Shown here piece after piece: positions 12,313 through 40,586 of a DNA stretch of 64,000 nucleotides. The first letter of the stretch is position 1; every line of letters begins with the position of its first letter. The position numbers and the translations under genes are program-made. Under the pieces are notes generated by a model. The model saw nothing but the letters and a program-made list of their open reading frames with translations, ran no database searches and had not been told where the DNA came from. The stretch is from Escherichia coli (GTDB lineage Bacteria; Pseudomonadota; Gammaproteobacteria; Enterobacterales; Enterobacteriaceae), in NCBI RefSeq assembly GCF_016026235.1, contig NZ_CP065613.1; one strand, 5' to 3'.

Positions 12313-12863
12313 TTTACCCAACGAATACAGGAAAAAGCGGAGAACACCTTCGTCTCACCACGCTGGAAAGTGTCTGGATTCAGGGAAAACTACGTATGTG
12401 GGGGCGCTGGTCGTATATTGGTGGCGGTAAGACGGGGAATATGTTTAACCTGATGTTGACCTCTAAAAAGCTGACAAAAACGGCAATTAACGAGGCGCTC
12501 CGGAGGATGAAAAAAGCAGGTCTGAACAAGTCTGAACTTGAGGCTTTTTTGCGGGATATGATTAACGGTAAGCAAAAGAGCTGGCTGGCGCATTGTACTG
12601 ATGCAGAGGCGTTATGTATTGATCGGGTCATAAGTGAGGTGCTGGCAGAGCATCCAGGATTGATTAGCGTCCTTCGGCAACGGTATGAGGGGCGGGGGAT
12701 GACCAAACGCAAAATGGCTGAACTGCTGAATGATGCACACCCGAAATGGAGTTTAAGAACCTGTGAAAGACGCATTGAGCATTGGCTAAAGGTGGCAGAA
12801 TTTATTTTGTACAAACCAATGGTTATGGCTTTTGGTATAGAGAAAAAAGTTATTGCTTTTTGA
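12309..12863 (+). CDS. putative late-gene antiterminator (Q-position protein)
   Basis: 184 aa. ATG 12309 overlaps the upstream stop. Located immediately upstream of a short terminated leader, the tRNAs and the lysis genes. The call rests on position plus vague family memory; it is not lambda Q. Confidence 0.5.
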   Translation: MIYPTNTGKSGEHLRLTTLESVWIQGKLRMWGRWSYIGGGKTGNMFNLMLTSKKLTKTAINEALRRMKKAGLNKSELEAFLRDMINGKQKSWLAHCTDAEALCIDRVISEVLAEHPGLISVLRQRYEGRGMTKRKMAELLNDAHPKWSLRTCERRIEHWLKVAEFILYKPMVMAFGIEKKVIAF

Positions 12864-13052: not shown

Positions 13053-13129
13053 GGCCCTTTAGCTCAGTTGGTCAGAGCGAGCGACTCATAATCGCCAGGT
13101 CGCTGGTTCAAGTCCAGCAAGGGCCACCA
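13053..13129 (+). tRNA. ileZ: tRNA with CAU anticodon, ileX/ileZ-like (tRNA-Ile2, lysidine-dependent, AUA) rather than Met
   Basis: 77 nt. Acceptor GGCCCTT/AAGGGCC, anticodon loop CTCATAA, T-loop GGTTCAAGTCC, encoded CCA. The body resembles E. coli ileX from memory. Confidence 0.85.
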
Positions 13130-13130
13130 A

Positions 13131-13207
13131 CCACCACTAGCTCATCCGGATAGAGCATCAACCTTCTAAGTTGACGGTGCGAGGTTCGAGTCCTCGGTGG
13201 TGGGCCA
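13131..13207 (+). tRNA. argN: tRNA-Arg (UCU; AGA/AGG)
   Basis: 77 nt. Acceptor CCACCAC/GTGGTGG, D-arm GCTC/GAGC, anticodon stem TCAAC/GTTGA with loop CTTCTAA, T-arm CGAGG-TTCGAGT-CCTCG, then G-CCA. Confidence 0.9.
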
Positions 13208-13209
13208 GC

Positions 13210-13285
<76 letters not shown>

Positions 13286-13288
13286 TAT

Positions 13289-13363
<75 letters not shown>

Positions 13364-25026: not shown

Positions 25027-26172
25027 ATGGCACAGGGCTTGCCTGTATCAAACGTTGTTAATGTTGATGTGATCATGTCGCCGCGTGCAGCATCAGGGCG
25101 AAATTTTGGTGCATTACTCATTCTCGGCCCGTCCACAATCATTCCGGTAAGTGAGCGCATTCGCCGTTATTCTGCTGCGGAAGATATTGGAAAAGATTTT
25201 GGCGTGGAATCACCAGAATATAAGGCTGCGCAGGTGTTTTTCTCACAATCACCGAAACCTCAGGAGGTTTTTGTTGGTCGTTGGGTGAAAACGAAGGGAG
25301 ACAGCGAACAGGCCACGCCTGAGACGCTGGAGCAGGCTGTGAATGCCATGCTTGATTATACTTCATGGTATGGGCTGGGGATTGCAGACGATGCAGATAT
25401 TCCGGATGCAGACTGGCTGAAAGTGGCTGCGGCGATCGAATCCTCTTCTGTAAGCCGTATTCTGGCGATTACGACAAGCGATGAGAAATGCCTGCAGACT
25501 GCATCCAGCGATGATTTGGCATCAAAACTGAAAACCGCCGGATATTCACGCAGTTTTATTCAGTATTCATCGGGTAATAAATACGCTGCGTTATCTGCAT
25601 TTGGCCGGGCATTCACGGTTAATTTCAATGGCAGTAATACCGCGATTACGCTCAAGTTTAAGCAGGAGCCGGGTGTCGGGTATGAAACACTGACAGTCAG
25701 CCAGGCATCGGCACTTGATGCAAAAAACTGCAATGTATTCGTGTACTACCAGAATGATACGGCTATCCTCCAGCAGGGAGTGATGGCTAACGGCGATTTC
25801 TTTGATGAACGCCACGGCCTGGACTGGTTACAGAATTATGTGCAGACCAACCTCTATAACCTGCTTTATACCAGCACCACGAAAGTACCCCAGAGTGAAG
25901 CCGGTATTACCCGACTGTTATCAAGTGTTGAAAAATCACTGGATCAGGCCGTTCAGAATGGACTGATTGCTCCGGGCGTATGGAACGGTGGCGACCTTGG
26001 TCAGTTGTCATCAGGTGACACGCTGCCCAAAGGTTATTACGTATACGCCCAGCCGCTGGATGAACAGGCACAATCAGAACGTGAAGCCCGTAAGGCTCCG
26101 GTGATTCAGGCTGCAATAAAACTTGCAGGCGCGGTTCATTACGCTGACGTACAGATTAACGTTGTTCGCTAA
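25027..26172 (+). CDS. tail sheath protein (DUF3383-type)
   Basis: 381 aa, followed by a tube-sized gene, chaperone and tape measure. Family from memory. Confidence 0.6.
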
Positions 26173-26182
26173 GGGGAAGTGA

Positions 26183-26623
26183 ATGTCTACCTATTCTTTT
26201 ATGGATGTCACTGCGACGCTGACCGGGCCGACCGGTTCGATTGACCTCGGGTACGGTTCGGCAAGTTCTGAAGAGGGGATTGTGGTTGCGATGGGCGGTC
26301 CTAAAAACACCATGACCATCGGTGCTGATGGCGAAGTGATGCACAGTCTCCATGCAGATAAAAGCGGGACGATTACCGTTAACCTTCTGAAGACATCACC
26401 GACAAATAAAAAATTGTCGCTGGCGTATAACGCACAGAGCCAGTCTTCTGCCACATGGGGGAATAACGTTATTGTGATCCGAAACAAGGTCAGCGGCGAC
26501 ATCATCACGGCACGCAGTGTTGCGTTCCAGAAACAACCGGATAACGCCAACGCTAAAACCGGTAATACGATGCCGTGGGTGCTTGACTGCGGCAAGATTG
26601 ACCAGGTTCTCGGGGAGTTTTAA
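26183..26623 (+). CDS. tail tube protein (DUF3277-type)
   Basis: 146 aa. Position and size. Confidence 0.55.
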   Translation: MSTYSFMDVTATLTGPTGSIDLGYGSASSEEGIVVAMGGPKNTMTIGADGEVMHSLHADKSGTITVNLLKTSPTNKKLSLAYNAQSQSSATWGNNVIVIRNKVSGDIITARSVAFQKQPDNANAKTGNTMPWVLDCGKIDQVLGEF

Positions 26624-26626
26624 TAC

Positions 26627-27079
26627 ATGGAATTCGAAATCAAAGGCGTGAAATATCGCGCGGCAAAACTCAGCGTTTTTGACCAGCTGAAAGTGACCCG
26701 CAAACTTCTGCCGGTGCTGGCAGGAATGATGTCAGATTTCGGGAGCATTCGCTCCCGTTTGCCTGCTGACGGCAAAATAGACACCGTGAAATTCGAGCAG
26801 TTAAAACCGGTGTTTGAAACCATGCTCCCGCGTATCGCTGAGGAACTGTCTTCCCTGACCGAAGATGACACCAGTGCAATTATTCATCCCTGTCTTGCGG
26901 TGGTGTCGCGGCGTCATATGGACGGATGGGTGCCGGTATTTACCCAGGGCGAACTGATGTTTGATGATATTGACCTGCTGGTCATGCTGCAGCTGGTGGC
27001 GCGGGTGGTCGCCGATTCGCTAGGAAATTTTTTGCAAGGACACCCTACCAAAGAGACGCCCATCCCGCCAGCGGAATAA
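26627..27079 (+). CDS. tail assembly chaperone (G-like short form)
   Basis: 150 aa directly upstream of the tape-measure gene. Confidence 0.6.
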   Translation: MEFEIKGVKYRAAKLSVFDQLKVTRKLLPVLAGMMSDFGSIRSRLPADGKIDTVKFEQLKPVFETMLPRIAEELSSLTEDDTSAIIHPCLAVVSRRHMDGWVPVFTQGELMFDDIDLLVMLQLVARVVADSLGNFLQGHPTKETPIPPAE

Positions 27080-27276
27080 CCTTCAATAGCCTGCCGGGTG
27101 GTGAAGATTTTATTCTTCGTCCGGCGCTTGCCTTCCATATTGACCAGAAAGATCTTAACAGTGGTGCGGTAGATCTCTGTCGCATCGCGCTTCTTAATGA
27201 CTACCTTGATATGTGCGAGGACAACGATGTCCGGGTAGAAAAATGGAGAGAGGATAATGAACGCCGAGACTATTAA
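26627..27276 (+). CDS. tail assembly chaperone, -1 frameshift-extended form (GT-like)
   Basis: Slippery heptamer A_AAT_TTT (27025-27031) in the zero frame. The -1 frame has no ATG and stays open for ~80 further codons (...FNSLPGGEDFILRPALAFHIDQKDL...) to TAA 27274-27276, overlapping the TMP start. Confidence 0.45.
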
Positions 27277-29209
27277 AGATTTCCTCGTCTCGCTTGGCTT
27301 CAGTGTGGATGATGCAGGAGCGAAAAAGTTCGGTTCTGTCCTCGCCGGTACAACTGCAAATGTCATCAAAATGGGGCTGGCTGTTGAAGGAGCTGCGCTG
27401 TCCGTGGTGGCCTTCACGGCTAAGATCGCCTCCGGTCTGGATAATCTTTACTGGGCGTCACAGCGCACCGGCGCGACAGTCCAGGGAATTCAGTCTATTG
27501 GCTATGCGGTTTCGCAGGTTGGCGGCAGCGTGGACGCTGCGCGATCTTCTCTGGAAAGCCTCTCCCGGTTTATTCGTAACAATCCCGGTGCAGAAGGCTT
27601 TCTGAATCGCCTGGGCGTACAGACCCGTGATGCCAGCGGTAACATGCGTGACATGGCCGCTATTTTTACTGGTGTAGGCCAGAAGCTCAGCGGTATGCCG
27701 TATTACCGGGCTAACCAGTATGCGCAGATGCTGGGCATTGACGAAAATACCCTTATGGCTATGCGTCGCGGAGTGGGGCAGTTCAGCGCTCAGTATTCAG
27801 AAATGGTGAAAGCGATCGGATTTAATGCCGATCAGGCTGCCTTATCGTCAAACCGGTTTATGACCTCGCTGAAATCGCTCGGTGAAATGGCCGGGATGGC
27901 GCGGGACAAAATCGGATCGAATCTTGCGGACGGACTGGCGGGGCAGATTGATAACCTGCGCAAAAAGATAATTGAAAATTTTCCCAAAATTGAAGTCACC
28001 ATCACAAAGGTCATAAAGGGGATCCTCTGGCTGGGTGAGATAGTCGGGCGGGGTGCATTCCGGATAGTCGATGGTGTCGGAGATATCATCGAGTGGTGGG
28101 GGAAACTGGATGCCGAAACGAAAACCCTGATAGAGGTTATCGGCGGTCTGGTTGTCGCCATGCGGATACTTAACTCTACTTTCTGGATGTCACCTATAGG
28201 GCTGATTACCGGTCTGATCGTGGCTCTCGGTCTCTTGTGGGAAGACTACAAAACATGGAAAGAAGGCGGTAACAGTCTTATCGACTGGGAAAAATGGCAA
28301 CCAGCAATAGATAAAGCGAAGGATGCGATCACCTGGCTTCGTGATCACCTTCTGGAACTAAAAGATGGTGTTGGCGGCTGGCAAAATGCACTGGAAATCC
28401 TCGGTACATTCATCGCGGGTGTCTGGGTATCCAAGGTTCTGGGGGCTTTCGGGAAAATATCAGGTTTGCTGGTCCCGCCGTGGTTAAAAGGCTGGATGGC
28501 TTATGCTGCGTATTTGTACTCTGATCGCGAAAATATTGGTGCCAGTGCGAAGTCATCCTGGGATTACACGAAACAAAATATTGGAGGTTCATTGCGCTGG
28601 CTTGGCATTGATACCGATTTTGGTCGTAATCCTCATACCGTAAAAGGCGCAAATATTCAGTCAGATATTCCAGGTGCTGAGCCGGAACAACATGCGCAGT
28701 CTACGAAGCGTACTTTAGCCGATCGGAATAACAATCCAGGGAATATTCGCCCGGTGAGCGGTAAAGGGTTCCGGTTTTTCGAATCAGCTCTTGAGGGCTG
28801 GGAGGCGATGAAAAACCAGCTCATGCGTTACTTTACTGGGAAAACAACCGGACGGGCATTACAGACTATTCAGGATATTGTCAGTACCTGGGCCCCGGCA
28901 GGTGATAACAACGATCCGAAAAAGTATGCACAGGATGTTGCGAAATGGATGGGAGTATCACCGAATGCAATATTGAATCTTACAGATCCCCGGACTATGG
29001 GAGCATTGATGCAGTCGATGGCGCGCAAAGAAGGTTATTCAAACTGGAACAGCCCGCTGGCGTATCAGGCCGCCGCTGGCAACCTTAACCAGCAGACTGT
29101 TATAAATGTTCATGGAGTTAACAACCCTCAGGAGGCGGCTAATCTGATCGCTGACAAGCAGGGGGCTGTAAATGCCAGGGCGGTACAGCAATTGAAAGGA
29201 CCTGCGTAA
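27257..29209 (+). CDS. tape measure protein
   Basis: 650 aa, helical with a TM-like central segment, in the expected position. The function of the C-terminal ~150 aa globular domain (NNNPGNIRP...) is unknown. Confidence 0.8.
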   Translation: MNAETIKDFLVSLGFSVDDAGAKKFGSVLAGTTANVIKMGLAVEGAALSVVAFTAKIASGLDNLYWASQRTGATVQGIQSIGYAVSQVGGSVDAARSSLESLSRFIRNNPGAEGFLNRLGVQTRDASGNMRDMAAIFTGVGQKLSGMPYYRANQYAQMLGIDENTLMAMRRGVGQFSAQYSEMVKAIGFNADQAALSSNRFMTSLKSLGEMAGMARDKIGSNLADGLAGQIDNLRKKIIENFPKIEVTITKVIKGILWLGEIVGRGAFRIVDGVGDIIEWWGKLDAETKTLIEVIGGLVVAMRILNSTFWMSPIGLITGLIVALGLLWEDYKTWKEGGNSLIDWEKWQPAIDKAKDAITWLRDHLLELKDGVGGWQNALEILGTFIAGVWVSKVLGAFGKISGLLVPPWLKGWMAYAAYLYSDRENIGASAKSSWDYTKQNIGGSLRWLGIDTDFGRNPHTVKGANIQSDIPGAEPEQHAQSTKRTLADRNNNPGNIRPVSGKGFRFFESALEGWEAMKNQLMRYFTGKTTGRALQTIQDIVSTWAPAGDNNDPKKYAQDVAKWMGVSPNAILNLTDPRTMGALMQSMARKEGYSNWNSPLAYQAAAGNLNQQTVINVHGVNNPQEAANLIADKQGAVNARAVQQLKGPA

Positions 29210-29859
29210 TGGACTTTTTATCTGTTTTACTGCAGCAGCGAACCCGCTCAATAGGAATCATTATTCCTGATGTGGTTATTACCGAAAAGCACACTGACGC
29301 CTTGGAAATTACGGAACATCCGGTTGAACAGCCCACGAATGCTGGTGCCAGTGGTGAGGGCGCTGGTTACATATCAGAACACGCATTCAGGCGCCCTTCT
29401 GAGGTTGTGATGGAAACCGGTTTTTCCGGAGGCGGATCGCTGCTTGATTTTGCCAGTAACCTGACTGCTACCAGTTTACTGGGGCTGAGCCCGAAAGAAC
29501 TGTATCAGGAACTGCTTAACTTGCAGCGGAATCGTATTCCTTTCGATGTGACAACCGGCAAGCGTATTTACAACAATATGTTGATAAAAACGCTGGAGGT
29601 CACGACCGATAAGAGTAGTGAAAATGTGCTTCTGGCGACACTTACCCTCAGGGAAGTAATTATTACCTCCACGCAGTCAGTCAGGGTTGCCCCGAAAAAC
29701 AATATGACCGAGGGAGTCGGAACGTCTGCTGTGCAGAATACAGGCACCAAAACAACGGTGCCGCCGAATAATTCCATTCTGAAATCGCTGCCACAGATGG
29801 CGCAAGAAGGTATCTCCACTGTTGATGGGTATTTGAGCAATTTATTTCTGGGAAGGTGA
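29209..29859 (+). CDS. tail/baseplate structural protein
   Basis: 216 aa. ATG overlaps the TMP stop. The call is positional. Confidence 0.45.
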   Translation: MDFLSVLLQQRTRSIGIIIPDVVITEKHTDALEITEHPVEQPTNAGASGEGAGYISEHAFRRPSEVVMETGFSGGGSLLDFASNLTATSLLGLSPKELYQELLNLQRNRIPFDVTTGKRIYNNMLIKTLEVTTDKSSENVLLATLTLREVIITSTQSVRVAPKNNMTEGVGTSAVQNTGTKTTVPPNNSILKSLPQMAQEGISTVDGYLSNLFLGR

Positions 29860-29862
29860 TTC

Positions 29863-30165
29863 ATGAAAGCCGTAGAAATCCCACTGGTTGCTGACAATCA
29901 GACTTTTGCCACCACAATTAACGGTTCGGTTTATCACCTGTCTGTCATCTGGCGAGGCGAGTGCTGGGTTCTGGATCTTGCTGACAGCAATGGCTCCGCC
30001 ATTATATCAGGTATACCGATGATTACGGGGGCTGACCTGCTGGCACAGTATCGATATATGGATCTGGGTTTTTCTCTGGTGGTGCTCTGCGACGTGGCAG
30101 GGCAGGAGAATCCGACGCAATTCGATCTTGGAACGCTCTCACACCTCTATGTTTTCACGGAGTAA
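29863..30165 (+). CDS. small baseplate-module protein
   Basis: 100-aa ORF in operon. Confidence 0.45.
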   Translation: MKAVEIPLVADNQTFATTINGSVYHLSVIWRGECWVLDLADSNGSAIISGIPMITGADLLAQYRYMDLGFSLVVLCDVAGQENPTQFDLGTLSHLYVFTE

Positions 30166-30167
30166 CA

Positions 30168-31208
30168 ATGTCGAAAAACTGGATGCGTCACTTTGAATTA
30201 TTGCTTGTTGATGATAAGGGCGACGGGATAAAAATTTCTGAGCTTAAAGTCACTTTCAATATTCAGAAAATGCCTGCGACCATATTTAATGGATTTGTTG
30301 GAAATTTTAAGGTTTATAACCTGTCTCCTACCACTCAGAACCGGATTATGCAGAAGGAGTTTTCGCGTATACAGGTTATTGCCGGATACAAGGGGCAACC
30401 GGATGCAGCAGGTAATTATCCTGATGAAAACGTTGGTATGATATTCAATGGAGATATCCGTTTTACTGTCACTGGTAAAGATAATGCCACAGACAGTTGG
30501 ATCATGTTGCAGTGTATTGACAGCTGGGAAGGCCACCTGAACGCAAGTGTGAAAACCACAGTGGCTGCTGGCTGGAAGTACAGCGATCTTTTCAGTCTGG
30601 GTATGAAATCATTCGAACCATATGGCATCGAATCCGGTGCAGTTCCTGACATGCCTGAAACGGTATTTCCCCGAGGTCGCGTTGTTTATCAAAACACATC
30701 AAGGTTGATGAATCATATCGCAGGGCAGTGTAAAGCTAACTGGTGGTATGAAAATAATCTGGTAAATATTGTTCCTGAAGATAAATATATTGGTGTTGCT
30801 ACGGTGTTGAATGCTAACACCGGGCTTATCAGTATGCCACAGCAGACGATGGGAGCTGGCGTAAATGTCAGATGTCTGATTAATCCAAATATTAAGCTCG
30901 GTGGGCTTATTCGTCTGGATCAGGCATCTGTATACCGTGCCTCTTTGAGTAATGACCAGGTAGCGAAATCGCCAGCACGACTGGATGAGTCTGAAAGCGA
31001 CGGTAATCTCTACGTTAACGGTCTGCCAGGCATGTCACAGCCTGCCAGCATTAATACTGACGGTGATTACATTGTGGGCAGCATTGATTATACTGGCGAC
31101 ACCCGAGGGCAGGCGTGGTATATGGACCTGCTTTGCCTGGCTAAAGGGAGTAAAAGTTTACTCACTCCTGATACGATAGCGAAAATAAGTGGGGTACCAA
31201 ATGCTTAA
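30168..31208 (+). CDS. baseplate hub-like protein (gpD/gp44-position)
   Basis: 346 aa. Position relative to the spike and wedge genes. Confidence 0.5.
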   Translation: MSKNWMRHFELLLVDDKGDGIKISELKVTFNIQKMPATIFNGFVGNFKVYNLSPTTQNRIMQKEFSRIQVIAGYKGQPDAAGNYPDENVGMIFNGDIRFTVTGKDNATDSWIMLQCIDSWEGHLNASVKTTVAAGWKYSDLFSLGMKSFEPYGIESGAVPDMPETVFPRGRVVYQNTSRLMNHIAGQCKANWWYENNLVNIVPEDKYIGVATVLNANTGLISMPQQTMGAGVNVRCLINPNIKLGGLIRLDQASVYRASLSNDQVAKSPARLDESESDGNLYVNGLPGMSQPASINTDGDYIVGSIDYTGDTRGQAWYMDLLCLAKGSKSLLTPDTIAKISGVPNA

Positions 31209-31443
31209 ATGGATCTTATTACTGGTATATTTTGTGACTTTGTCTTCTGTGGCTGCGGTAACATGCACCACTTCAAATACAGGAACAACTTACTGTACTG
31301 GTACAGACAGTAGTGGTTCTACAGTTAAAACAGAATCTTATACAACCAATACAGGTACTACGTATACCACAGGAACGATTAATGGGAGTGCAGTACATCG
31401 TGAATGCCAGGCGACCAATACTGGCACAACGTACTGTAATTAA
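31201..31443 (+). CDS. small secreted Thr/Gly/Cys-rich repeat protein (NTGTTY x3), moron
   Basis: MLKWILLLVYFVTLSSVAA signal peptide, then TSNTGTTYCTGT / TTNTGTTYTTGT / ATNTGTTYCN repeats. AT-rich (~37% GC in the first 60 nt, hand count). The ATG overlaps the hub gene stop. Confidence 0.55.
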   Translation: MLKWILLLVYFVTLSSVAAVTCTTSNTGTTYCTGTDSSGSTVKTESYTTNTGTTYTTGTINGSAVHRECQATNTGTTYCN

Positions 31444-31478
31444 TTTTTTTAAGAAATCAGCTATAAGAGACATTTGTA

Positions 31479-31820
31479 ATGAAGAAAATATTCCTTCTCG
31501 CAGTGTTGACTCCAACAATTTGTGTAGGTGGAACGCTGAATGATTTTTTTGGACTGCACACCTCACTGGCTGATAACTACATCATCAAGAGAGAGATCAC
31601 AAATAGGGCTGTTTCTAATGCGGCTATGGACGCTGTATCTAATGGTCGTGAGGCGGATTTTGGTGATGAGTTAATGAAAGAACATGGTGATAGTTATGGT
31701 GAAATAGCTCTGCGTCAACTCGCTTTCGAGTGCGGTTATTCTTTTTCCGATAGTGGCCAATCTCTTACGATTCTAAAAAAAGAAGAATGTAGATTGGTGC
31801 TATCTGAAAATAAGAAATGA
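31479..31820 (+). CDS. secreted/periplasmic 113-aa protein, moron
   Basis: MKKIFLLAVLTPTICVGG signal-like N-terminus; not a canonical lipobox. Followed by its own terminator. Confidence 0.55.
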   Translation: MKKIFLLAVLTPTICVGGTLNDFFGLHTSLADNYIIKREITNRAVSNAAMDAVSNGREADFGDELMKEHGDSYGEIALRQLAFECGYSFSDSGQSLTILKKEECRLVLSENKK

Positions 31821-31884
31821 GTTCGCTAAATTAACTTTTCACGGTAATTGCTTCTATCACCATGGAAAGAAAACTAGCTACATA

Positions 31885-31909
31885 AAACCCGCCTTCGAGT
31901 GGGTTTTTT
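31885..31909 (+). terminator. intrinsic terminator closing the two-gene moron
   Basis: AACCCGC-cttcga-GTGGGTT followed by TTTTT. Confidence 0.65.
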
Positions 31910-31928
31910 GCTTTCTGGAGGCATATGA

Positions 31929-32681
31929 ATGCCAGTTTCTTTAAGCGCTCAACTTGGTAGCAAAGAACAGGCCGATGTAAGACTTGCTGGCTCTGTCATG
32001 TCGGCGCTGCGTGTTTCTATGCCCGGCATCGTCCAGTCATTTGATCCGGACACGGTAACGGTAGTTGTTCAACCAGCGATTAAAGGCTATGAGCCAGACT
32101 CAAATGGAATCAACCAGTCGACGACATTACCCTTGCTGGTGGATGTGCCAGTGGTATTCCCGCGCGGCGGAGGCTGTACGTTGACTTTTCCGGTAAAAGC
32201 CGGGGATGAGTGTCTTGTCGTTTTTGCCGATCGTTGTATTGATTTCTGGTGGCAGAGTGGCGGGATACAGGAGCCGGTTGATGACAGAATGCATGATTTA
32301 TCGGATGCGTTTTGTATTGTAGGTCCCCAGTCGCAGGCGAGGAAGATTAGCGGTATTAATACCAGTGCCACACAGTTGCGTAGTGACGACGGCAGTACCT
32401 ATTTTGAGCTTAATCCTGATACCAGGAAAATTAAAATTGTCGCTCCGGGTGGTCTTGATGTGGTTGCCCCTCTGGCTGATTTTTCTGAGAAAGTAACCAT
32501 TCATGGCCTGTTAACCTGGATGGGTGGCATGGTGGGGTCTGTTGTTTCTGGTGTGGCTTCAAAAATCACTGGTGCTGTTGAGTTTTTGGGTAGCGTGAAG
32601 GCTAACGGCAAGCCAATCGATGATACGCACACTCATGGTGGTGTTCAGCGCGGTGGAAGCAATACCGACGGAGTAAACTGA
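31929..32681 (+). CDS. baseplate central spike (Mu gp45 / gpV-like)
   Basis: PGIVQSFDPDTVTVVVQPAIKG...VDVPVVFPRGGG...AGDECLVVFADRCID is the typical OB-fold spike N-domain pattern. Confidence 0.65.
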   Translation: MPVSLSAQLGSKEQADVRLAGSVMSALRVSMPGIVQSFDPDTVTVVVQPAIKGYEPDSNGINQSTTLPLLVDVPVVFPRGGGCTLTFPVKAGDECLVVFADRCIDFWWQSGGIQEPVDDRMHDLSDAFCIVGPQSQARKISGINTSATQLRSDDGSTYFELNPDTRKIKIVAPGGLDVVAPLADFSEKVTIHGLLTWMGGMVGSVVSGVASKITGAVEFLGSVKANGKPIDDTHTHGGVQRGGSNTDGVN

Positions 32682-33034
32682 TGCGATACAGACGTGAAGA
32701 CGCCGATGGCGATTACACCTTTGGCAGCGGTGATGACACCTGGCTGATTAACTCACCGGAGGCCGTGGCGCAGGCGGTAAAAACGCGATTCGAATTGTGG
32801 TATGGGCAATGGTTTCTCGACACCACCGAGGGGACTCCGTGGATCCAGTCCGTACTCGGTAAGCAGAAGCCGGAAACCTACAACCTGGCGATCCGTAAGC
32901 GCATCCTCGAAACGCGGGGCGTTAAATCAATCCTCTCTTTCAATACTACGGTGGATACCACGACCCGACGTGTCAGGTTTTCCACTGAAATCGACACTCT
33001 CTATGGAATAACGACTGTTACATCGGAGGCGTAA
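32681..33034 (+). CDS. baseplate wedge small subunit (gpW/gp25-position)
   Basis: 117 aa with ATGA overlap. The call is positional. Confidence 0.45.
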   Translation: MRYRREDADGDYTFGSGDDTWLINSPEAVAQAVKTRFELWYGQWFLDTTEGTPWIQSVLGKQKPETYNLAIRKRILETRGVKSILSFNTTVDTTTRRVRFSTEIDTLYGITTVTSEA

Positions 33035-34233
33035 TGGCTCTGAACCTTGATTCTCTCGGTTTATCTGCAAAGGTAACCGCGGAGGGGATCAGTGCGCCTG
33101 ATTATCAGACGATACTCAGCACCCTGATTAGCTATTTTCAGCAGATTTATGGTAGTGATGCCTACCTCGAACCGGACAGTAAAGACGGTCAGATGGTGGC
33201 TCTGATGGCGCTGGCGATTCATGATGCCAATAATATGGCTATAACTGTCTACAACTGTTTTTCACCGGCAACCGGCTATGGGGCTGCACTGACCAGTAAC
33301 GTGAAAATAAATGGTATTTCACGTAAAGGCGCGACGAACTCTACGGTTGATTTGCTTCTTACAGGAACAGCCGGAACAACCATCATTAATGGCAGCGTGA
33401 AAGATGGTAATAATGTGATATGGCGTTTGCCTGCGTCAGTGGTGGTCGGTGTGGATGGTACAGTGATGGCGACCGCAAGATGTTCCGTCAGTGGTGCAGT
33501 GGCGGCGCTGGCTGGAACTATCACTGAAATTAATACGCCAACCCGTGGCTGGGTTTCGGTAATTAATCCTGCTGCGGCTACTGTTGGCTCTCCGGCAGAA
33601 ACTGATGCTGAGTTACGTATCCGCCAGTCGCAAAGTGTTGCGTTGCCATCAATAACCCCATTTGAAGCACTGGATGGTGCTGTTTCTAATGTTGCCGGTG
33701 TAACCCGCCACAAACTCTATGAAAACGATACTGGTTCGGAGGACGGTAACGGGTTACCGCCACACTCTGTTGCTGTAATTGTGGATGGCGGTGATGTGAC
33801 GGATATTGCTCAGGCTATCAGAGGGAATAAAGGCCAGGGGACAGCCACTCACGGTACAACATCCGTTACGGTTCCGGATAAATACGGCAATCCCCATGTA
33901 ATCAAATTCTCGCGTTCCAGTGATGTGCCTGTTTATGCCCGGATTAAATTAAAAGTTTTTACGGGTTATACCTCACAGATAGGGCAGCAGATCCAGCAGG
34001 TTATTTCCGACTATATCAATAGTCTGACGATTGGTGATTCGGTCCTTTTAAGTCGCATTTACTCACCGGCGAATCTTGGCGTGGTGAGTGGCGGGAATGC
34101 ACGCTATTACGATATTCAGGAGCTGACGATTGGGAAATCCCCGGGGGCTTTGTCGTCATCAAACATTGATATCAGATACAACGAATCTGCGTCCTGTACC
34201 CCGGAAAATATCGTTATAACGGTGGAGTCATGA
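33034..34233 (+). CDS. baseplate J-like protein
   Basis: 399 aa. Position and family memory. Confidence 0.6.
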   Translation: MALNLDSLGLSAKVTAEGISAPDYQTILSTLISYFQQIYGSDAYLEPDSKDGQMVALMALAIHDANNMAITVYNCFSPATGYGAALTSNVKINGISRKGATNSTVDLLLTGTAGTTIINGSVKDGNNVIWRLPASVVVGVDGTVMATARCSVSGAVAALAGTITEINTPTRGWVSVINPAAATVGSPAETDAELRIRQSQSVALPSITPFEALDGAVSNVAGVTRHKLYENDTGSEDGNGLPPHSVAVIVDGGDVTDIAQAIRGNKGQGTATHGTTSVTVPDKYGNPHVIKFSRSSDVPVYARIKLKVFTGYTSQIGQQIQQVISDYINSLTIGDSVLLSRIYSPANLGVVSGGNARYYDIQELTIGKSPGALSSSNIDIRYNESASCTPENIVITVES

Positions 34234-34910
34234 GCAAATACACCGAACTAATCACGAACTACCACGCCACCAAACCTAAATTTCTTGCGCATGTTGATCT
34301 GATGACTCGGCCACTTATTGATGTTGCGGCTGCCACCAGAGGGCTGATTACTGCATTTGATATTGACTCTGCGGTTGGTGTGCAACTTGACATTCTGGGA
34401 TTGTGGATCGGACGTAGCCGTGTTGTCAGCCAGCCTATCTCAGGTGTCTATTTCAGCTGGGATACCGACGGGCTTGGATATGATCAGGGGGTATGGCAGG
34501 GACCATACGATCCTGATTCCGGATACATGTACCTCAGCGATGAAACTTATCGTGTCATTCTTAAAGCGAAGATTGCGATTAATAACTGGGATGGACGGAA
34601 TGATTCGCTTCCGGCAATTCTTGACGCTGCAACAGCAGGATCCGGGCTGCGAATGCAGATAGTCGATAATCAGGACATGACGATATCGGTCTGGGTCTTT
34701 CCTGATACTGATATTTCAGATGTATCGTGTGAGTTAATTGCGGCAATTAAACAGGGGTATCTCACAGTAAAAGCCGCCGGGGTATGGGCGGGTGGCATTG
34801 AAACACCTTCGGTGGAAACCCCATCGGAAGGCTCAAAATTTTTTGGTTTTGATATGGATAACGAATTCATCAGTGGTTTTGATGTAGGAGCATGGGGAGT
34901 ATTACTCTGA
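34230..34910 (+). CDS. baseplate/tail-fibre attachment protein (gpI / DUF2612-like)
   Basis: 226 aa with ATGA overlap. Confidence 0.5.
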   Translation: MSKYTELITNYHATKPKFLAHVDLMTRPLIDVAAATRGLITAFDIDSAVGVQLDILGLWIGRSRVVSQPISGVYFSWDTDGLGYDQGVWQGPYDPDSGYMYLSDETYRVILKAKIAINNWDGRNDSLPAILDAATAGSGLRMQIVDNQDMTISVWVFPDTDISDVSCELIAAIKQGYLTVKAAGVWAGGIETPSVETPSEGSKFFGFDMDNEFISGFDVGAWGVLL

Positions 34911-36166
34911 TGGCGAAAAATGACTTTAAAGCGTTTGCAACGGGTAAAAATGCCAATGTTATGTCGCAGGAGGAATGGGAAGCGTTGCCTGCGCTTTTAT
35001 CCGGATTTACAGCAGGGAAAGCATCCAGTGCGCAAGTCAATAAGGTTATTCGGCAGGCCAGCTTTATTGCTGCAGCTCTGGCCCAGTTTGTAAGTGACAA
35101 AACGCAACGGGATGTGCTTGATAATGGTGATCTGCCCGGTTTTGTTGAATTGCTGGGATCGGGGTTTGCTGTTGAATACCTGAGCCGCAAGAATCCGTTT
35201 GGCGATATCAAATCGGATGGCACGGTGAAAACGGCTCTCGAAAACCTTGGTTTACAGGAAACGGTAAACAAGGCTGGTAACGCTGTCCAAAAGACAGGCG
35301 ATACCTTGTCCGGTGGACTTACTTTTGAAAACGACTCAATCCTCGCCTGGATTCGGAATACTGACTGGGCAAAGATTGGTTTTAAAAATGATGCCGACAG
35401 CGATACTGATTCATACATGTGGTTTGAAACAGGTGACAACGGCAATGAGTATTTCAAATGGAGACACCGCCTCGCTGGCGGCCAGCTCAAAGAGCTGATG
35501 AATCTTAAATGGGATTCACTAAATATTCTGGTTAATGCCGTCATTAATGGTTGCCTTGGCATTGGTACGACGAATGCGTTAGGTGGAAATTCAATTGCTT
35601 TCGGGGATAACGATACCGGCCTGAAACAGAACGGCGATGGTCTGCTGGATGTTTATGCGAATGGACAGCATGTATTTCGTTTTCAGAATGGCGTGGCTAT
35701 TGCTTTTAAGAATATTCAGGCCGGAACTGCCAGAAAATTCACGTTATCCAGCGCCAACAACTCCACGAAAAATGCAGCGTTTTGTTTGTGGGGTAATCCA
35801 TCCAGGCCTGTTGTTGCAGAGCTTGGTGATGATTCAGGCTGGCATTTTTTCAGCCAGAGGAATACAGATAACAGCATCACGTTCGCCGTAAACGGACAGG
35901 TAATTCCGTTAAATTACGGAAACTTCGATGCCCGCTATAAACATCGAACTGAGGGGGTACAGGATGTGCGATATGGCCATGAAATGTATTACGGCCCCGG
36001 CAGTAACACCGTTTCGTGGACATTTCGCGCACCTTCGGGACACGGGCTGTCAGGGGTAAAGATATCGGATACCCACCGTAACTCAGCGGATAACGTTGAC
36101 GGTGTGTATTACCGACCGCTGCAAAAACTGATTAATGGTACCTGGTATAACGTGGCGAGCGTTTAA
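34910..36166 (+). CDS. tail fibre protein 1
   Basis: MAKNDFKAFATGKNANVMSQEEWEALPALLSGFTAGKASSAQVNKVIRQASFIAAALAQF is the conserved fibre N-terminus seen in P2 H/Mu S-type fibres. ATG 34910 overlaps the upstream TGA. Confidence 0.8.
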   Translation: MAKNDFKAFATGKNANVMSQEEWEALPALLSGFTAGKASSAQVNKVIRQASFIAAALAQFVSDKTQRDVLDNGDLPGFVELLGSGFAVEYLSRKNPFGDIKSDGTVKTALENLGLQETVNKAGNAVQKTGDTLSGGLTFENDSILAWIRNTDWAKIGFKNDADSDTDSYMWFETGDNGNEYFKWRHRLAGGQLKELMNLKWDSLNILVNAVINGCLGIGTTNALGGNSIAFGDNDTGLKQNGDGLLDVYANGQHVFRFQNGVAIAFKNIQAGTARKFTLSSANNSTKNAAFCLWGNPSRPVVAELGDDSGWHFFSQRNTDNSITFAVNGQVIPLNYGNFDARYKHRTEGVQDVRYGHEMYYGPGSNTVSWTFRAPSGHGLSGVKISDTHRNSADNVDGVYYRPLQKLINGTWYNVASV

Positions 36167-36168
36167 TT

Positions 36169-36714
36169 ATGTTACATTTAAAAAATATTACAGCGGGTAA
36201 TCCAAAAACTGTTGAGCAATATCAGATGACAAAACGATATTCGGTCACCTGGCTTTTTTCGGAAGACGACAAAAACTGGTATGAAGAACTGAAGAATTTC
36301 GCCAGCGACACAATAAAAATAGCTTACACCGGAGACGGTCGTGTGGTGTGGGTCGGTAAGGATGTGACAGGCATCGAGCCACGCAATGCCAGTGTTATTG
36401 AAGTTCCTGATATTACCGCTAACCGACGGATTACCGCGCCGGGTTACTGGTTTTACCGCAATGATGAATTTGTCTTTGACTACAGACTCAAAGCGGAAGA
36501 TGAGCGTGATGCCCTTCTGGCTCAGGTCAGTGCCCGGACAGGGGAATGGGAAGAAGACCTGCTGCTGGGGTTAATCAGCGACGAAGATAAAGAAAAGCTG
36601 AAAGCCTGTCGTATTTACGCGAAATCACTGCAGGCGATGGATTTCAGCGCCATCACTGATAAATCCTCATACAACGCCATTGAATGGCCCGTCTCTCCGG
36701 AAGGTTCTTCCTGA
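36169..36714 (+). CDS. tfa: tail fibre assembly chaperone 1
   Basis: 181 aa directly after the fibre gene. The C-terminus ...EDKEKLKACRIYAKSLQAMDFSAITD...IEWPVSP is typical of Tfa. Confidence 0.75.
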   Translation: MLHLKNITAGNPKTVEQYQMTKRYSVTWLFSEDDKNWYEELKNFASDTIKIAYTGDGRVVWVGKDVTGIEPRNASVIEVPDITANRRITAPGYWFYRNDEFVFDYRLKAEDERDALLAQVSARTGEWEEDLLLGLISDEDKEKLKACRIYAKSLQAMDFSAITDKSSYNAIEWPVSPEGSS

Positions 36715-36737
36715 TTTAATTTATCGCGAGAAAAACA

Positions 36738-38006
36738 ATGTCTGTAGTGATATCAGGTGCGCTGACTGATGGCGCAGGTATCCCCATGTCCGGATACCAT
36801 ATTATTCTGAAATCCCGGGTAAACACCCCGGAAGTGGTTATGCACACTGTTGCTGATGTGATGACAGGAAACGATGGTGAATACTGTTTCCATGCGCGGA
36901 CTGGAAAATATGGTGTGTATCTGAAACAGGACTGGCGCAACGAGTACAACGTTGGCGACATTGCTGTATATGAGGACTCAAAGCCCGGCACGCTGAATGA
37001 CTTTCTGATTGCTCCTGATGAGGGCGACCTGAAACCGGATGTCGTCAAACGCTTTGAGGAAATGGTGGCGCAGGCGCAGCAGAGCGCCGGGGCCGCAGCC
37101 GGAAACGCACAGCAGACGGCGCAGGATGTGGCGGCAGCCGCAGGTTATGCCCGCGCAGCAGAACAGGCCAAAAATGACATTGATGCTGCGCTGACCGGCA
37201 CTCTGAAAACGGCTAACCATCTGTCTGAAATCGCAGCAGCAGGCGAAAAGGCACAACAGAAGTCCCGGGATAATCTGGGGCTGAAAAGTGCAGCCACGAT
37301 GGAAGCACAGAGCGACATTTACGACCGGACAAAAGGCCGTCTGGCGATACCCGGCGCATTCGGCTTTGGGCGTGCTTTTCTGCCTGAAGATGTTATCCGT
37401 TTTGACACTAAGAGTGATTTCCTGGCCTGGGTAAGGAATGCGCTGCCAGGTGAATATTCCGTTGCTGGCCCCTACGACATCATCATACCCGACACACGGT
37501 TTGAAGGGGTGCTCAGCATCCGGTGGACTGATGCACGCCCTGAGACAACAGAACCGCGGTACAGAGCCAAATCCCTTACTTTTTACGGCATTAACGGCCC
37601 CATTTATCACACCCGCTACTGCTACTGGCCCATATCCAGACTGACTGGCTGGGTGAAAATAAATATAACCACAGAAGATATTATTTACAGAATCGTGGCG
37701 AGCTCTGTCCGCAACAGATGGGGAGACCCTGACATTGGCGGGCTGATTATTGCTGCGTACCAGGGAGAAGCTGACGGTGATAAAGTCATCAGACTTGTCA
37801 GGGGGCAGTCATACAGAGGCTCACGACTGGGACCGGTGGGGATTTCAGTGCCCAGTACTCCCACCGGAACGTATATAGCATCCCCACAATTTTTCATTAC
37901 GGGATGTTCAGAGCATTCATTACCGGGGTCATATTGCGCCCTGTCCGGGGTGCCGGATGCACATGTCTCTGGCGCAATGCCCGGGCTTTTTATTCGCACA
38001 TCGTGA
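36738..38006 (+). CDS. tail fibre protein 2 (prophage tail-fibre N-terminal domain, Stf-like)
   Basis: MSVVISGALTDGAGIPMSGYHIILKSRVNTPEVV... N-domain plus an Ala/Gln-rich coiled region typical of side tail fibres. Confidence 0.7.
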   Translation: MSVVISGALTDGAGIPMSGYHIILKSRVNTPEVVMHTVADVMTGNDGEYCFHARTGKYGVYLKQDWRNEYNVGDIAVYEDSKPGTLNDFLIAPDEGDLKPDVVKRFEEMVAQAQQSAGAAAGNAQQTAQDVAAAAGYARAAEQAKNDIDAALTGTLKTANHLSEIAAAGEKAQQKSRDNLGLKSAATMEAQSDIYDRTKGRLAIPGAFGFGRAFLPEDVIRFDTKSDFLAWVRNALPGEYSVAGPYDIIIPDTRFEGVLSIRWTDARPETTEPRYRAKSLTFYGINGPIYHTRYCYWPISRLTGWVKINITTEDIIYRIVASSVRNRWGDPDIGGLIIAAYQGEADGDKVIRLVRGQSYRGSRLGPVGISVPSTPTGTYIASPQFFITGCSEHSLPGSYCALSGVPDAHVSGAMPGLFIRTS

Positions 38007-38016
38007 GGAATGCACC

Positions 38017-38580
38017 GTGGAAATTAAAAAAATCATTAATCCCCGTTATACCGAAAGTGGCGCAGTAGACTGTGACGTTTTTTTTGACGACAGGGACCAG
38101 GCAGTTCCCTACACAGCCACCGCTGATGATGTCGCACCGACGGGTCAGCAAATCTGGCAGGAACTGCAAAGTGGCAAATGGGGTGAGATAGCCCCATTCA
38201 CTGTGACACCAGAAATGCTGGAAGCGGCCAGAGAGGCCAGACGTCAGGAAATTGAAGCATGGCGCACAGAACAGGAGGCGAAGCCGTTCACGTTTGAATG
38301 GAACGGTCGTATCTGGAATGCTGGCCCCGACTCACTGGGCCGCCTGTCCCCGGTAGTCATGCTGGCAAAATCTGTCACAGCACAAACACATATGGCGTGG
38401 AGCGATGCCGATAATCAGCAGGTGAAACTGTCGATGCCGGAACTGGAAGAACTGGCGGCAGCAATGGTGCAGGCGCAGGTCGATCGCAACGATGAGATTT
38501 ATCGCCGTCAGCGTGAAATGAAAGAGGAGCTGAGCGGTCTGGATGATTTGGCTTCAATTCGGGCGTTTGACGTTGAGTAA
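38017..38580 (+). CDS. tail fibre assembly-like protein 2 (GTG start)
   Basis: GTG 38017 lies 6 nt after SD GAGGAA. 187 aa with a Tfa-like C-terminal helix region. The track start 37957 overlaps the fibre gene by 50 nt. Confidence 0.55.
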
Positions 38581-38759: not shown

Positions 38760-40586
38760 TTATGAATGGTGCAGTTGTGAGCCGTTTTCAGGCAATCGCA
38801 GGGCCAGTACCTCGTCAGTCAGCTGACGGTAAATCTGCTGTTCAGTCTCACGCATCACCTGTGCACCGGCTTCCCTCTCCGCATCCGCATCACCGCTCAG
38901 ACCTGATGCTTTCAGCCGGTCAGCCACCCTCTGAGGGTACTCATTCTCCAGCATCTCATATTTCTGCTCTTCTGCCAGCGCCCAGCGGTCAGCTTCCGTA
39001 CGCTTCAGTACAGCATGCCATGGTCCCCAGAGGGAGAACCAGTCCGTAAATTCATTCTCTTCACGGCTTCTGACCATGGCTTCGGCAGTGCGGAGGTCAT
39101 TTGCTGTCACTCCCGACACGCCATAGAAACGCATTTCCTTCACGGCAGTGGAGAGCTGAAGTTTCTCTGCGAGCATGGTCTGGAAGGCCAGGTAGACTTC
39201 TATCTCATCCACAAAATGGAGAGTTCTGACTTTATCCCGGGCAATGTCCTCCAGAATTTCGAGGCGGAACATTTCCCTGCCCAGGGAGAGCAGAGCGCCG
39301 GTATCATTATCGAAAAGGCCTTCTGATGCCTGATGGACCAGGAGGGTTTTCCGGAGATTGTTCCATGTGAGCGCGACACGGTCCTCACAGCTCTCAGTGG
39401 CATCAGCAGCAACAGCGAAAGACTGCTGTCGAAGCTCCGCAGAGGCACTGAGTTTTTCCAGCCATGCAGCGACCTGTTCACGGAATCCGGAGGTATTGCG
39501 TGCAGAGACGGTATCGGAAAGGCGGTCAAGGAACGCGGAGAATGCCCGGGAATTCTCCTCGGTGGAAAAAGAAGTCCATTGTGTAGAAACCTCCCGACGA
39601 TCTGCTTCAGGAAACCAGGCTGCCACAGTTTCGGGAAGAGGGGGGATCTGAAAGTTCTGCCCCCCTTCAGTGATGACTCTGATATGGCGCGAATGTAAAT
39701 TTTGCGGCAACATCTGGCGTAAAAACAGTCTGTTTTGGTCTGACAGGGAAATACGAAACTGAGGCCCGTTAAAATTTGGAACCGAAGTTTGCTGTATTAA
39801 GAATAGCAGAGTTTGATCTGATAAGGGGTTATTTGCAATCTCAATAGTTATATGAGGATCTAAACGAAAAAGATTTGTCGGGATTGTAGTTATTTGGTTG
39901 TTTTCAAAATAAAAAAATCTTCTCATGATAATATTTTCTTGGATGTTTGGTAAGTTGCTTAATCTATTGCTATATGCAAAAAGAAGTTGCAGTCTCCTAG
40001 GTAAAGGGGGCAGTTCAGTAAGATGGTTGTGCGCAACCTTAAGTATCTTAAGATTAGAAGGCAGAGATGGAAGAGTTTGCAGTTCGTTGTTCCTAACCTC
40101 AAGTTTTTTTAAATTCAAGGGTAATGAAGGCAGTGTGGATAACCTATTATACTCTGCGCTTAGTGATTTGATGGTGTCTGGTAATAACGGCAGATTCTCT
40201 AATTGATTTTCGGACACATCCAAAGTTATTAGATAATGTGGTAATGCAGATATATGTGTTAAGAAATTATCTCTTGCAATAAGTTCTTTAATATTTTCAG
40301 GTAAATCAGTAAGGATGGTTAATTTATTACAGCTCACATCAAGCTTTTTAATGCAAGCAGGGAGTACAGGTAACGAGGAAAGCGCCAAGGCTCGCAGGTC
40401 CAGTTTATGCCCCTTAGAGGTAAGACATGCACGAAGTCTTCTTACCGCCTCAGTACGCTGTTCTTCCGGTAACCCCTGTTTCTCCCAATCATCCCATTCG
40501 GACAAATAATGGTTGGGGGATGTAATTGTGCTGATATGTGGAAATAAACAGGATGAAATATTTCTGAGCATATTAATTTCTCGCAT
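38760..40586 (-). CDS. ipaH: IpaH-family type III effector: N-terminal LRR domain + C-terminal novel E3 ubiquitin ligase (NEL) domain
   Basis: The C-terminal ~300 aa (FSAFLDRLSDTVSARNTSGFREQVAAWLEKLSASAELRQQSFAVAADATESCEDRVALTWNNLRK...LHHS) match the invariant IpaH NEL domain, including the catalytic Cys region. The N-half has LxxLPxLPxxL repeats and is markedly AT-rich. A likely alternative start is ATG 40571 (MLRNISS...). Confidence 0.95.
   Translation of the reverse strand: MREINMLRNISSCLFPHISTITSPNHYLSEWDDWEKQGLPEEQRTEAVRRLRACLTSKGHKLDLRALALSSLPVLPACIKKLDVSCNKLTILTDLPENIKELIARDNFLTHISALPHYLITLDVSENQLENLPLLPDTIKSLSAEYNRLSTLPSLPLNLKKLEVRNNELQTLPSLPSNLKILKVAHNHLTELPPLPRRLQLLFAYSNRLSNLPNIQENIIMRRFFYFENNQITTIPTNLFRLDPHITIEIANNPLSDQTLLFLIQQTSVPNFNGPQFRISLSDQNRLFLRQMLPQNLHSRHIRVITEGGQNFQIPPLPETVAAWFPEADRREVSTQWTSFSTEENSRAFSAFLDRLSDTVSARNTSGFREQVAAWLEKLSASAELRQQSFAVAADATESCEDRVALTWNNLRKTLLVHQASEGLFDNDTGALLSLGREMFRLEILEDIARDKVRTLHFVDEIEVYLAFQTMLAEKLQLSTAVKEMRFYGVSGVTANDLRTAEAMVRSREENEFTDWFSLWGPWHAVLKRTEADRWALAEEQKYEMLENEYPQRVADRLKASGLSGDADAEREAGAQVMRETEQQIYRQLTDEVLALRLPENGSQLHHS

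Follow-up and report, generated by a model that had tools for sequence, protein, structure and literature searches.

In the 64,000-nucleotide stretch of Escherichia coli DNA examined in this study (NCBI RefSeq assembly GCF_016026235.1, contig NZ_CP065613.1; hereafter the window), the junction between the baseplate hub and baseplate spike genes of a temperate myovirus prophage is a dedicated accessory slot, with a variable hub end on its left and a conserved hairpin on its right. The slot holds two small genes on the plus strand, gene 1 (31201-31443, 80 amino acids) and gene 2 (31479-31820, 113 amino acids), whose products look, from their sequences, like proteins exported by the Sec route. As far as sequence comparison can tell, gene 1 is a member of an undescribed and unannotated family of mini-proteins, while gene 2 is an independent second passenger. 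An earlier note on this DNA had described the pair as a two-gene moron inserted among the baseplate genes and had suggested superinfection exclusion, receptor masking or host interaction as its function. The locus is of a familiar kind, accessory with exported cargo, in a new variant that includes an undescribed mini-protein family. A role in superinfection exclusion or host interaction is plausible for these candidate genes, and the best explanation overall, which we hold tentatively, is an accessory slot supplying periplasmic proteins that act on the envelope or exclude phages.

The slot spans 31148-31885 (plus strand; boundaries from blastn). On its left, 99% homology to sister prophages ends at 31147, about 20 codons ahead of the stop codon of the hub gene (30168-31208, plus strand; Pfam E217_GP41; phrog_196 'baseplate hub', E 7e-79), and the C-terminal tails of hubs vary from locus to locus. 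On its right, homology to the sister prophages resumes at 31886, ahead of the spike gene (31929-32681, plus strand; Pfam N-terminal spike domain, E 1e-44, and GpV Apex). Between these borders the window is non-homologous to sisters that are 94-99% identical elsewhere, and its GC content (0.386, compared to 0.507 for the late operon) is low enough that the segment looks acquired. The AT-rich island that the earlier note placed at 31189-31912 is therefore real and accessory, although its true span is shifted and starts inside the hub gene. Of 5426 complete E. coli genomes, 284 contain the hub and spike backbone and only 6 the cassette of the window.

Comparison with the prophages of E. coli 8178 and Br_190_kylling indicates how sharply variation is confined. 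From the capsid genes through the wedge gene, both match the window at 94-99% identity, and across the structural module of approximately 18 kilobases only the hub-spike slot and the tail fibres are non-homologous. The variable part of the fibres lies beyond the first ~200 nucleotides (the fibre N-terminus) and includes the assembly genes (window 34892-38580 versus loci L031, L032 and L033). Br_190_kylling resembles the window closely in the tape-measure C-terminus (98.6% identity), hub (98.7%) and spike (95.6%), yet its slot contains a different secreted-protein family (family A, see below) together with Phd/Doc. The same cassette as in the window is found in E. coli BCE049 (97.8% identity), where the prophage occupies a different chromosomal site, and in Salmonella (L012; ~92%), in both cases beside unrelated distal parts of the fibres. 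The cassette thus recombines independently of the tape measure, hub, spike and tail fibres. That it does not track the receptor-binding proteins, tape measure or spike argues against masking of the phage's own receptor in the manner of T5 Llp or lambdoid Cor, the analogy on which the earlier note drew, and equally against an inhibitor tailored to the tail-tip enzymes of this same phage. One such candidate, an inhibitor of the lytic transglycosylase of its own tape measure, was weakened by the lack of covariation between the cassette and the tape-measure C-terminus. Between E. coli and Salmonella, synonymous divergence (dS) is 0.09 for gene 1, 0.23 for gene 2 and 0.53 for the hub; a transfer of the cassette more recent than that of the backbone is nevertheless not claimed, since the DNA identity of the cassette, 91-95%, is no different from that of the entire block that starts at the tape-measure C-terminus and ends with gene 2.

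The right-hand border is marked by a hairpin (31884-31907) followed by a T-run, resembling an intrinsic terminator (31884-31913, plus strand; folding energy -15.2 kcal/mol) and lying 7 nucleotides upstream of the Shine-Dalgarno sequence of the spike gene. Since sister homology resumes at 31886, this hairpin belongs to the conserved right flank, and the same hairpin and T-run occur just before the spike ribosome-binding site in 15 of 17 aligned relatives whatever the cargo, including Yokenella, Pantoea, Klebsiella phages and SEN34. In the alignment of these 17 relatives, 84% of cells are paired and three stem pairs have changed on both sides. The structure that had been taken for the island's own terminator is consequently part of the backbone. 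A conserved hairpin within the operon may insulate the spike and downstream baseplate genes from transcription of the cargo; alternatively, it may be a recombination anchor for cassette exchange. Separately, the 40 nucleotides past gene 2 (31846-31885) are shared with the 3' flank of an unrelated cargo in E. coli A41 (L006 2915-2954), which looks like a trace of an earlier cassette exchange in the slot.

The contents of the slot vary widely among relatives, but it was never found empty. The earlier note had proposed looking for related tail modules that lack the insert; among about 20 relatives examined, hub and spike were never adjacent and at least one gene always lay between them, so that gene 1 replaces a default occupant and the description as an insertion does not hold. 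A small secreted protein is encoded next to the hub in E. coli, Klebsiella phages, Yersinia YP3, Pantoea, Yokenella, Hafnia, Trabulsiella and Burkholderia Magia (on the opposite strand in Magia). In most relatives the first slot position is taken by family A (phrog_3443), a secreted protein of 110-115 amino acids with two Cys residues, whose start overlaps the hub stop and which some RefSeq records name 'STY1065/STY2022 family phage-derived protein'. SEN34 carries the same slot protein family as Yersinia YP3, annotated without its N-terminus. In the window, this first position is instead occupied by the rare gene 1 family (family C). Family A and gene 1 share their position, hub coupling, small size, signal peptide and a Cys pair, with a Cys 3-4 residues past the cleavage site; however, their mature parts are unrelated, family A being basic (isoelectric point, pI, 8-9) and gene 1 acidic (pI 5.4). 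In profile comparisons (hhalign), only the signal peptide and first Cys of families A and C could be aligned (22 columns), and nothing aligned between family A and the gene 2 family (family B), so a candidate origin of gene 2 as a family A paralogue was rejected. On the evidence of these profiles, families A, B and C are mutually unrelated.

Later positions in the slot hold optional passengers, including DUF4282, Phd/Doc, a YafO-type toxin pair, a TPR-like plus HEPN-like pair, and others. The TPR-like (~250-266 amino acids) and HEPN-like (~123-136 amino acids; PADLOC HEPN_IX, E 1.7e-6) genes recur together without a Pfam match (L006 1757-2928, L008 1821-2985, L003 5225-6366 and L017 4077-4877) and are a candidate toxin-antitoxin or defence pair; YP3 carries only the first gene of this pair. 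The remaining cargo comprises Phd/Doc(Fic), the YafO-type toxin with its upstream partner, the DUF4282 membrane protein and a further gene on the opposite strand (L009 1751-2571; L012 6512-7332; L010 1919-2909; L007 1807-2046; L011 1838-2293, minus strand). The virulent Pseudomonas phage E217 encodes gp42 between its hub gp41 and tip gp43, and gp42 was not among the virion proteins identified in a cryo-EM study (PMC10329688). This protein (L025 12595-13128) is without a signal peptide, and among the relatives examined a secreted protein at the post-hub position was seen only in prophages and apparently temperate phages.

Genes 1 and 2 assort independently and are not an obligate pair, contrary to their earlier description as a two-gene module. 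Homologues of the cassette proteins were found in Salmonella, Yokenella, Hafnia, Trabulsiella and Pantoea, and gene 1 is present in at least six genera. The two genes occur together in the lineage of the window and in Salmonella, which adds Phd/Doc. Gene 1 is present without gene 2 in Yokenella (where the gene 1 relative is alone in the slot), Hafnia and three metagenome contigs; its relatives are accompanied by the TPR-like and HEPN-like pair in L003 and L004 and by other genes in Hafnia and L026. In Pantoea and L014 it is family A that precedes the gene 2 relative, whose start overlaps the family A stop. In Trabulsiella and two contigs, a gene 1 relative, a secreted protein of 136 amino acids and a gene 2 relative that has diverged to 28% identity (E 4e-8) are found together.

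The structure of gene 1 is consistent with a small exported protein built from repeated hairpins. The open reading frame is preceded by a GGGG Shine-Dalgarno sequence 6 nucleotides upstream of its ATG, which overlaps the hub stop codon by 8 nucleotides. In its predicted signal peptide (31201-31254), the n-region includes a Lys and the hydrophobic core is 11 residues long (best 10-residue Kyte-Doolittle score 2.9), with the likeliest cleavage after Ala18 (S-V-A|A); the Ala at -1 is invariant and the residue at -3 is small in the homologues checked. The mature part of 62 amino acids (31255-31440) contains four invariant Cys residues forming two C-x9-C pairs, and three copies of an NTGTTY motif spaced 72 and 69 nucleotides apart. 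Copy 1 (NTGTTYC, 31276-31297, plus strand) is bracketed by Cys22 and Cys32, and copy 3 (NTGTTYC, 31417-31438, plus strand) by Cys69 and Cys79, while copy 2 (NTGTTYT, 31348-31369, plus strand) has Tyr47 and Thr56 in place of the two Cys. The three copies differ by 11 synonymous and no non-synonymous codon changes; because they differ by synonymous changes only, the sameness of the repeats in the window is held at the protein level. An AlphaFold2 (AF2) model of the mature part, built from only six sequences, predicts a six-stranded meander of three hairpins with N-T-G at each turn (predicted local distance difference test, pLDDT, ~86), each hairpin tipped by one motif copy. The size, signal peptide, four Cys and three motif copies noted earlier were all borne out, although the statement that the mature part consists almost entirely of repeats went too far: the copies form only the hairpin tips.

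Searches with gene 1 point to a family that has largely escaped notice. A word-indexed protein search returned only five clusters, whereas a profile search of 1.84 billion representatives returned approximately 35 clusters of 70-110-amino-acid proteins sharing the gene 1 plan: a signal peptide with an AXA site, a C-x8/9-C hairpin, a Cys-free hairpin and usually a second C-x8/9-C hairpin. Gene 1 fits this plan, and some members have four or five hairpin units. Hairpin cores are 68% identical within a protein compared to 33% between proteins, with tips such as TNTGTTY, TDSWGTTR, TDALGTTR and ETPWGT each occurring three times in its protein. As the earlier note had supposed, gene 1 matches no named family (Pfam, PHROGs, NCBIfam and PADLOC searches), and fold searches with its model gave only generic beta-meander matches. 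The gene is unannotated in E. coli VL40, FDAARGOS_943 and BCE049 (RefSeq, NCBI Prokaryotic Genome Annotation Pipeline) and uncalled in the Salmonella assembly. A collection of 15 billion predicted proteins contains no exact copy of the gene 1 sequence, whereas that of gene 2 occurs there, letter for letter, on 182 contigs; because gene callers miss gene 1 while its neighbor is found so often, its apparent rarity is partly an artefact of annotation. Distant gene 1 relatives (L021, L022 and L024, at ~5500-6260; GC ~43-46%) directly follow another small secreted or membrane protein, in islands that contain serine recombinases, an HNH endonuclease and AbiTii and no recognisable tail module.

The gene 1 profile also matched RCC1-repeat proteins weakly (E down to 4e-9, with many stretches in each of P0018, P0026, P0039, P0050 and P0063) through the blade hairpin motif H-S-C-A-I-T-x-x-G-x-x-Y-C-W-G ('sCaiTseGntYCWG'). 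A relationship between gene 1 and RCC1 was considered and dropped, as only the hairpin motif is common to both: RCC1 has seven blades of ~50 amino acids, whereas gene 1 has three units of ~23 amino acids in 62 residues. The likeness is probably convergence on a Cys/Thr/Gly hairpin. Like gene 1, the RCC1 blade and beta-hairpin repeat binders such as the choline-binding or 'YG' cell-wall repeats use tandem hairpins of ~23 amino acids with a turn Gly, a likeness that is a structural analogy only; gene 1 differs from all of these in having no Pfam match to their families, having only three units, being stapled by predicted disulfides, and forming no propeller or solenoid.

Gene 2 belongs to PHROG 13007, a family of unknown function (phrog_13007, E 1.9e-38, residues 1-113 of 116 profile positions). 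The signal-like N-terminus noted earlier has Sec-type features: the predicted signal peptide (31479-31529) contains two Lys and a hydrophobic core ending in C-V-G|G, and the homologues have corresponding sites (A-x-A|G in Pantoea and L014; C-L-A|Q in Trabulsiella). The mature part of 96 amino acids is acidic and helical with two conserved Cys, is modelled by AF2 as a helical bundle (pLDDT ~95 in the core), and has a highly conserved core. Its dN/dS (ratio of non-synonymous to synonymous substitution rates) relative to the Salmonella copy is 0.24, and of the 10 replacements that separate the E. coli and Salmonella copies of gene 1, 7 are located in the signal peptide. Because of the homologues, the synonymous-only changes among the repeats, the concentration of gene 1 replacements in the signal peptide and the dN/dS of gene 2, both open reading frames are regarded as real genes.

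For both proteins, most homologues have a positive n-region, a hydrophobic core and small residues at -3 and -1 of the proposed cleavage site. No 19-residue stretch in either mature part is hydrophobic enough for a membrane span, and no lipobox was found in either precursor, the proposed sites being of the signal peptidase I type; the only Cys inside a signal peptide (C15 of gene 2) comes after P-T-I and has no counterpart in homologues. Pfam, NCBIfam and PADLOC gave no meaningful match to either protein (none in Pfam at E <= 0.01, which leaves out both Ail/Lom-type Lom and Bor), neither gene was found by megablast or tblastn among 50,697 phage records, searches of PDB sequences with the family profiles returned nothing, and Rfam gave only sub-threshold matches. 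Literature searches likewise returned nothing on the hub-spike slot or its protein families.

Taken at face value, these features suggest that both proteins would be cleaved by signal peptidase I and released as soluble periplasmic proteins, probably disulfide-bonded, and they would not be expected as parts of the virion. In the AF2 model, the likely binding surface of gene 1 would be the three identical NTG-tipped hairpins carried on one beta-sheet. With the least certainty of any step, the proteins may act on the envelope of the lysogen or infected cell, where their most probable effect would be to hinder the entry of other phages or other envelope-attacking agents, presumably leaving the phage's own receptor unmasked. 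By analogy with lambdoid biology, the conserved terminator would stop transcription not modified by Q ahead of the spike gene, and late Q-modified transcription would read through it. A role in an arms race fits the locus because the slot is hypervariable beside near-identical flanks and collects defence and toxin-antitoxin cargo.

However, it is also important to note several observations that weigh against periplasmic envelope or exclusion proteins as the explanation. Neither protein is homologous to a known exclusion protein, and the signal peptides were judged by rule only. No promoter was detected for the cassette beyond one chance-level match; translational coupling to the hub and the lack of a promoter mean that late-operon expression is the only timing that the sequence itself indicates. 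A scan for promoters found two sites compared to 4.8 expected by chance, with none between gene 1 and gene 2. The sole plus-strand match upstream of gene 1 is sigma-70-like (ATTACA-17-TATACT, 31066-31094, 9 of 12 positions); its -10 element consists of a Tyr codon and a Thr codon and lacks conservation in both Pantoea and YP3, and the match was dropped as being at chance level and no more conserved than coding sequence requires. In addition, three of the six E. coli genomes with the cassette have gene 1 or gene 2 broken by insertion sequence (IS) elements, which implies no obvious host selection to keep the cassette. FDAARGOS_943 has two IS1 copies in gene 1 (L029 261-1968); VL7S7 and O121 201805972 carry IS600 at gene 2 or inside it (IS-interrupted cassette matches H5, H6, H47 and H49).

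There are several other potential explanations for the cassette. It could be lysogenic-conversion cargo that improves host fitness in ways unrelated to phages, through altered envelope physiology, colonisation or interbacterial competition. The assortment of the cassette independently of all virion parts, its acquired-looking AT-rich segment, the further host-directed cargo of this prophage (an ipaH NEL E3 ligase, see below) and the distant gene 1 relatives in mobile islands outside tail modules are all in keeping with such a role; it appears unlikely, however, given a position that is fixed beside the hub and translationally coupled across many genera, the lack of a promoter for expression in the lysogen, and the IS elements that break the cassette in several hosts. 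A helper of the phage's own lytic cycle, expressed only with the late operon, seems slightly less probable again. Such a helper might tune the peptidoglycan or envelope for lysis and egress, or block the ejection of progeny DNA into infected cells and debris, and it would explain a start codon overlapping the hub stop with no promoter found, a first slot position that is filled in every temperate relative examined, and the presence in this phage group of a tape measure with a lytic-transglycosylase domain (by RefSeq name; Pfam SLT in Pantoea). Yet three unrelated families should not be able to stand in for one another as a core helper, and such a helper should co-vary with a virion partner, whereas Br_190_kylling combines a near-identical tape-measure C-terminus, hub and spike with family A, and virulent E217 has the non-secreted gp42 at the slot.

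That the proteins mask the receptor used by the phage itself, in the way of T5 Llp or Cor, is improbable. Small envelope-targeted products are encoded within the tail module, and the slot and the tail fibres are the only hypervariable loci of the structural module, as masking would lead one to expect, but the products have no lipobox (the signal-peptide Cys of gene 2 not being conserved), one and the same cassette accompanies unrelated fibre distal parts in BCE049 and Salmonella, and neither sequence nor fold is similar to Llp or Cor. It is more improbable still that gene 1 encodes a secreted toxin, bacteriocin or precursor of multi-copy signalling peptides, with gene 2 as its immunity protein or partner. 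The gene 1 product is small, secreted and contains Cys, and its three copies of a short motif that varies among family members recall multi-core precursors; against this, gene 1 and gene 2 assort independently, the leader is of the Sec type and not the double-glycine type of class II microcins, the slot has no exporter and no processing enzyme or receptor gene is adjacent, and the repeats are confidently modelled by AF2 as structural hairpins of one sheet. Least credible of all is that one or both open reading frames are non-functional remnants. Although no annotation pipeline checked calls gene 1, it has been kept in at least six genera with invariant Cys, an intact signal peptide, a good Shine-Dalgarno sequence and the 11 to 0 ratio of synonymous to non-synonymous changes among its repeats, and the core of gene 2 is highly conserved.

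Several known systems invite comparison with the slot and its proteins. Classical late-operon morons of prophages reportedly include lom and bor of lambda and gp15 of HK97. The slot resembles them in having compositionally deviant genes between tail genes, followed by a terminator, that are absent or different in close relatives and have envelope-targeted products; it differs in having no detectable promoter of its own, a terminator that belongs to the backbone, and a site never empty (about 20 relatives), and in that its first gene, translationally coupled to the structural gene before it, takes the place of a default occupant instead of adding to the cluster. Sim of phage P1 is a signal-peptide-processed protein that blocks P1 infection after adsorption, and, as predicted for the slot proteins, it is an exported, processed prophage product, although it is larger, unrelated and found in another genomic context. 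In T4, the periplasmic protein Spackle (gp61.3) inhibits the tail lysozyme gp5 (PMC7677548, PMC7650644). Like the gene 1 and gene 2 products, it is small, soluble and exported with a cleavable signal peptide (here predicted by rule), and by acting on a tail-tip component of the incoming phage it demonstrates that a soluble periplasmic protein can exclude. Neither slot protein has a Spackle fold, and the absence of covariation between cassette and tape-measure C-terminus counts indirectly against inhibition of a tail-associated peptidoglycan hydrolase. T5 Llp sits in the inner leaflet of the outer membrane and binds FhuA from there (PMC9586334), and both Llp and lambdoid Cor are small envelope proteins encoded among tail genes that block reinfection as lipoproteins targeting the phage's own receptor (PMC9586334; bioRxiv 10.64898/2026.03.26.714494). 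The slot proteins, by contrast, are without a lipobox and are not co-inherited with fibre genes.

The cassette lies in a late structural operon (16018-38580, plus strand) of a lambdoid-regulated temperate myovirus prophage of the E. coli/Shigella type. Its tail module is of the E217/Pam3 type, in the order tape measure (27257-29209), Dit-like protein, Pam3_gp18 plug, hub, spike, sheath initiator and baseplate J, and over 25027-38580 it is 98-100% identical to a prophage of E. coli VL40 integrated beside bio. In VL40 the cassette is intact, and the tape measure and baseplate J genes are broken by IS150 and IS2. Upstream of the structural operon, the same prophage carries a Q-type antiterminator-like gene (12189-12863, plus strand; Pfam DUF1133, E 4e-107, and Phage_antitermQ) and a lysis cassette, and four tRNA genes (anticodons CAT, TCT, TGT and TCC; 13053-13363) lie between the antiterminator-like gene and the lysis genes. 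The element is closed by an ipaH-type NEL E3 ligase effector (38760-40586, minus strand; LRR_TTSS and NEL domains), a type III secretion effector that points to a Shigella or enteroinvasive E. coli background.

A broader proposal, to which we give less weight than to either of the first two alternatives above, is that gene 1 founds a superfamily of Sec-exported, disulfide-stapled hairpin-repeat mini-proteins (three to five hairpins, carried on mobile elements) that serve as 'programmable' periplasmic binders of periodic or threefold targets. The first slot position would then be the dedicated hypervariable exclusion locus of temperate Enterobacterales myoviruses, filled by at least two unrelated families (family A and that of gene 1) doing the same job. 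If so, candidate targets of the hairpin binders would include the trimeric tail-tip complex with which another phage arrives, a porin trimer, and the glycan strands of peptidoglycan. Should the genes have no phage-related phenotype, they would be merely another hypothetical prophage cargo pair.

The tail type that carries the slot is common: 284 of the 5426 complete E. coli genomes have it, and it extends to Salmonella, Klebsiella, Yersinia, Pantoea and others. Current annotation under-counts the gene 1 family. The slot concentrates toxin-antitoxin and HEPN-like cargo, which makes it a practical place to seek new defence genes, and the unusual sameness of the hairpin tips inside each protein, combined with their divergence from one protein to the next, could point to a new small binding scaffold. 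If the first slot position does encode exclusion proteins or envelope modifiers, these phages would possess, beside their fibres, a hypervariable periplasmic arms-race locus that has so far gone unstudied.

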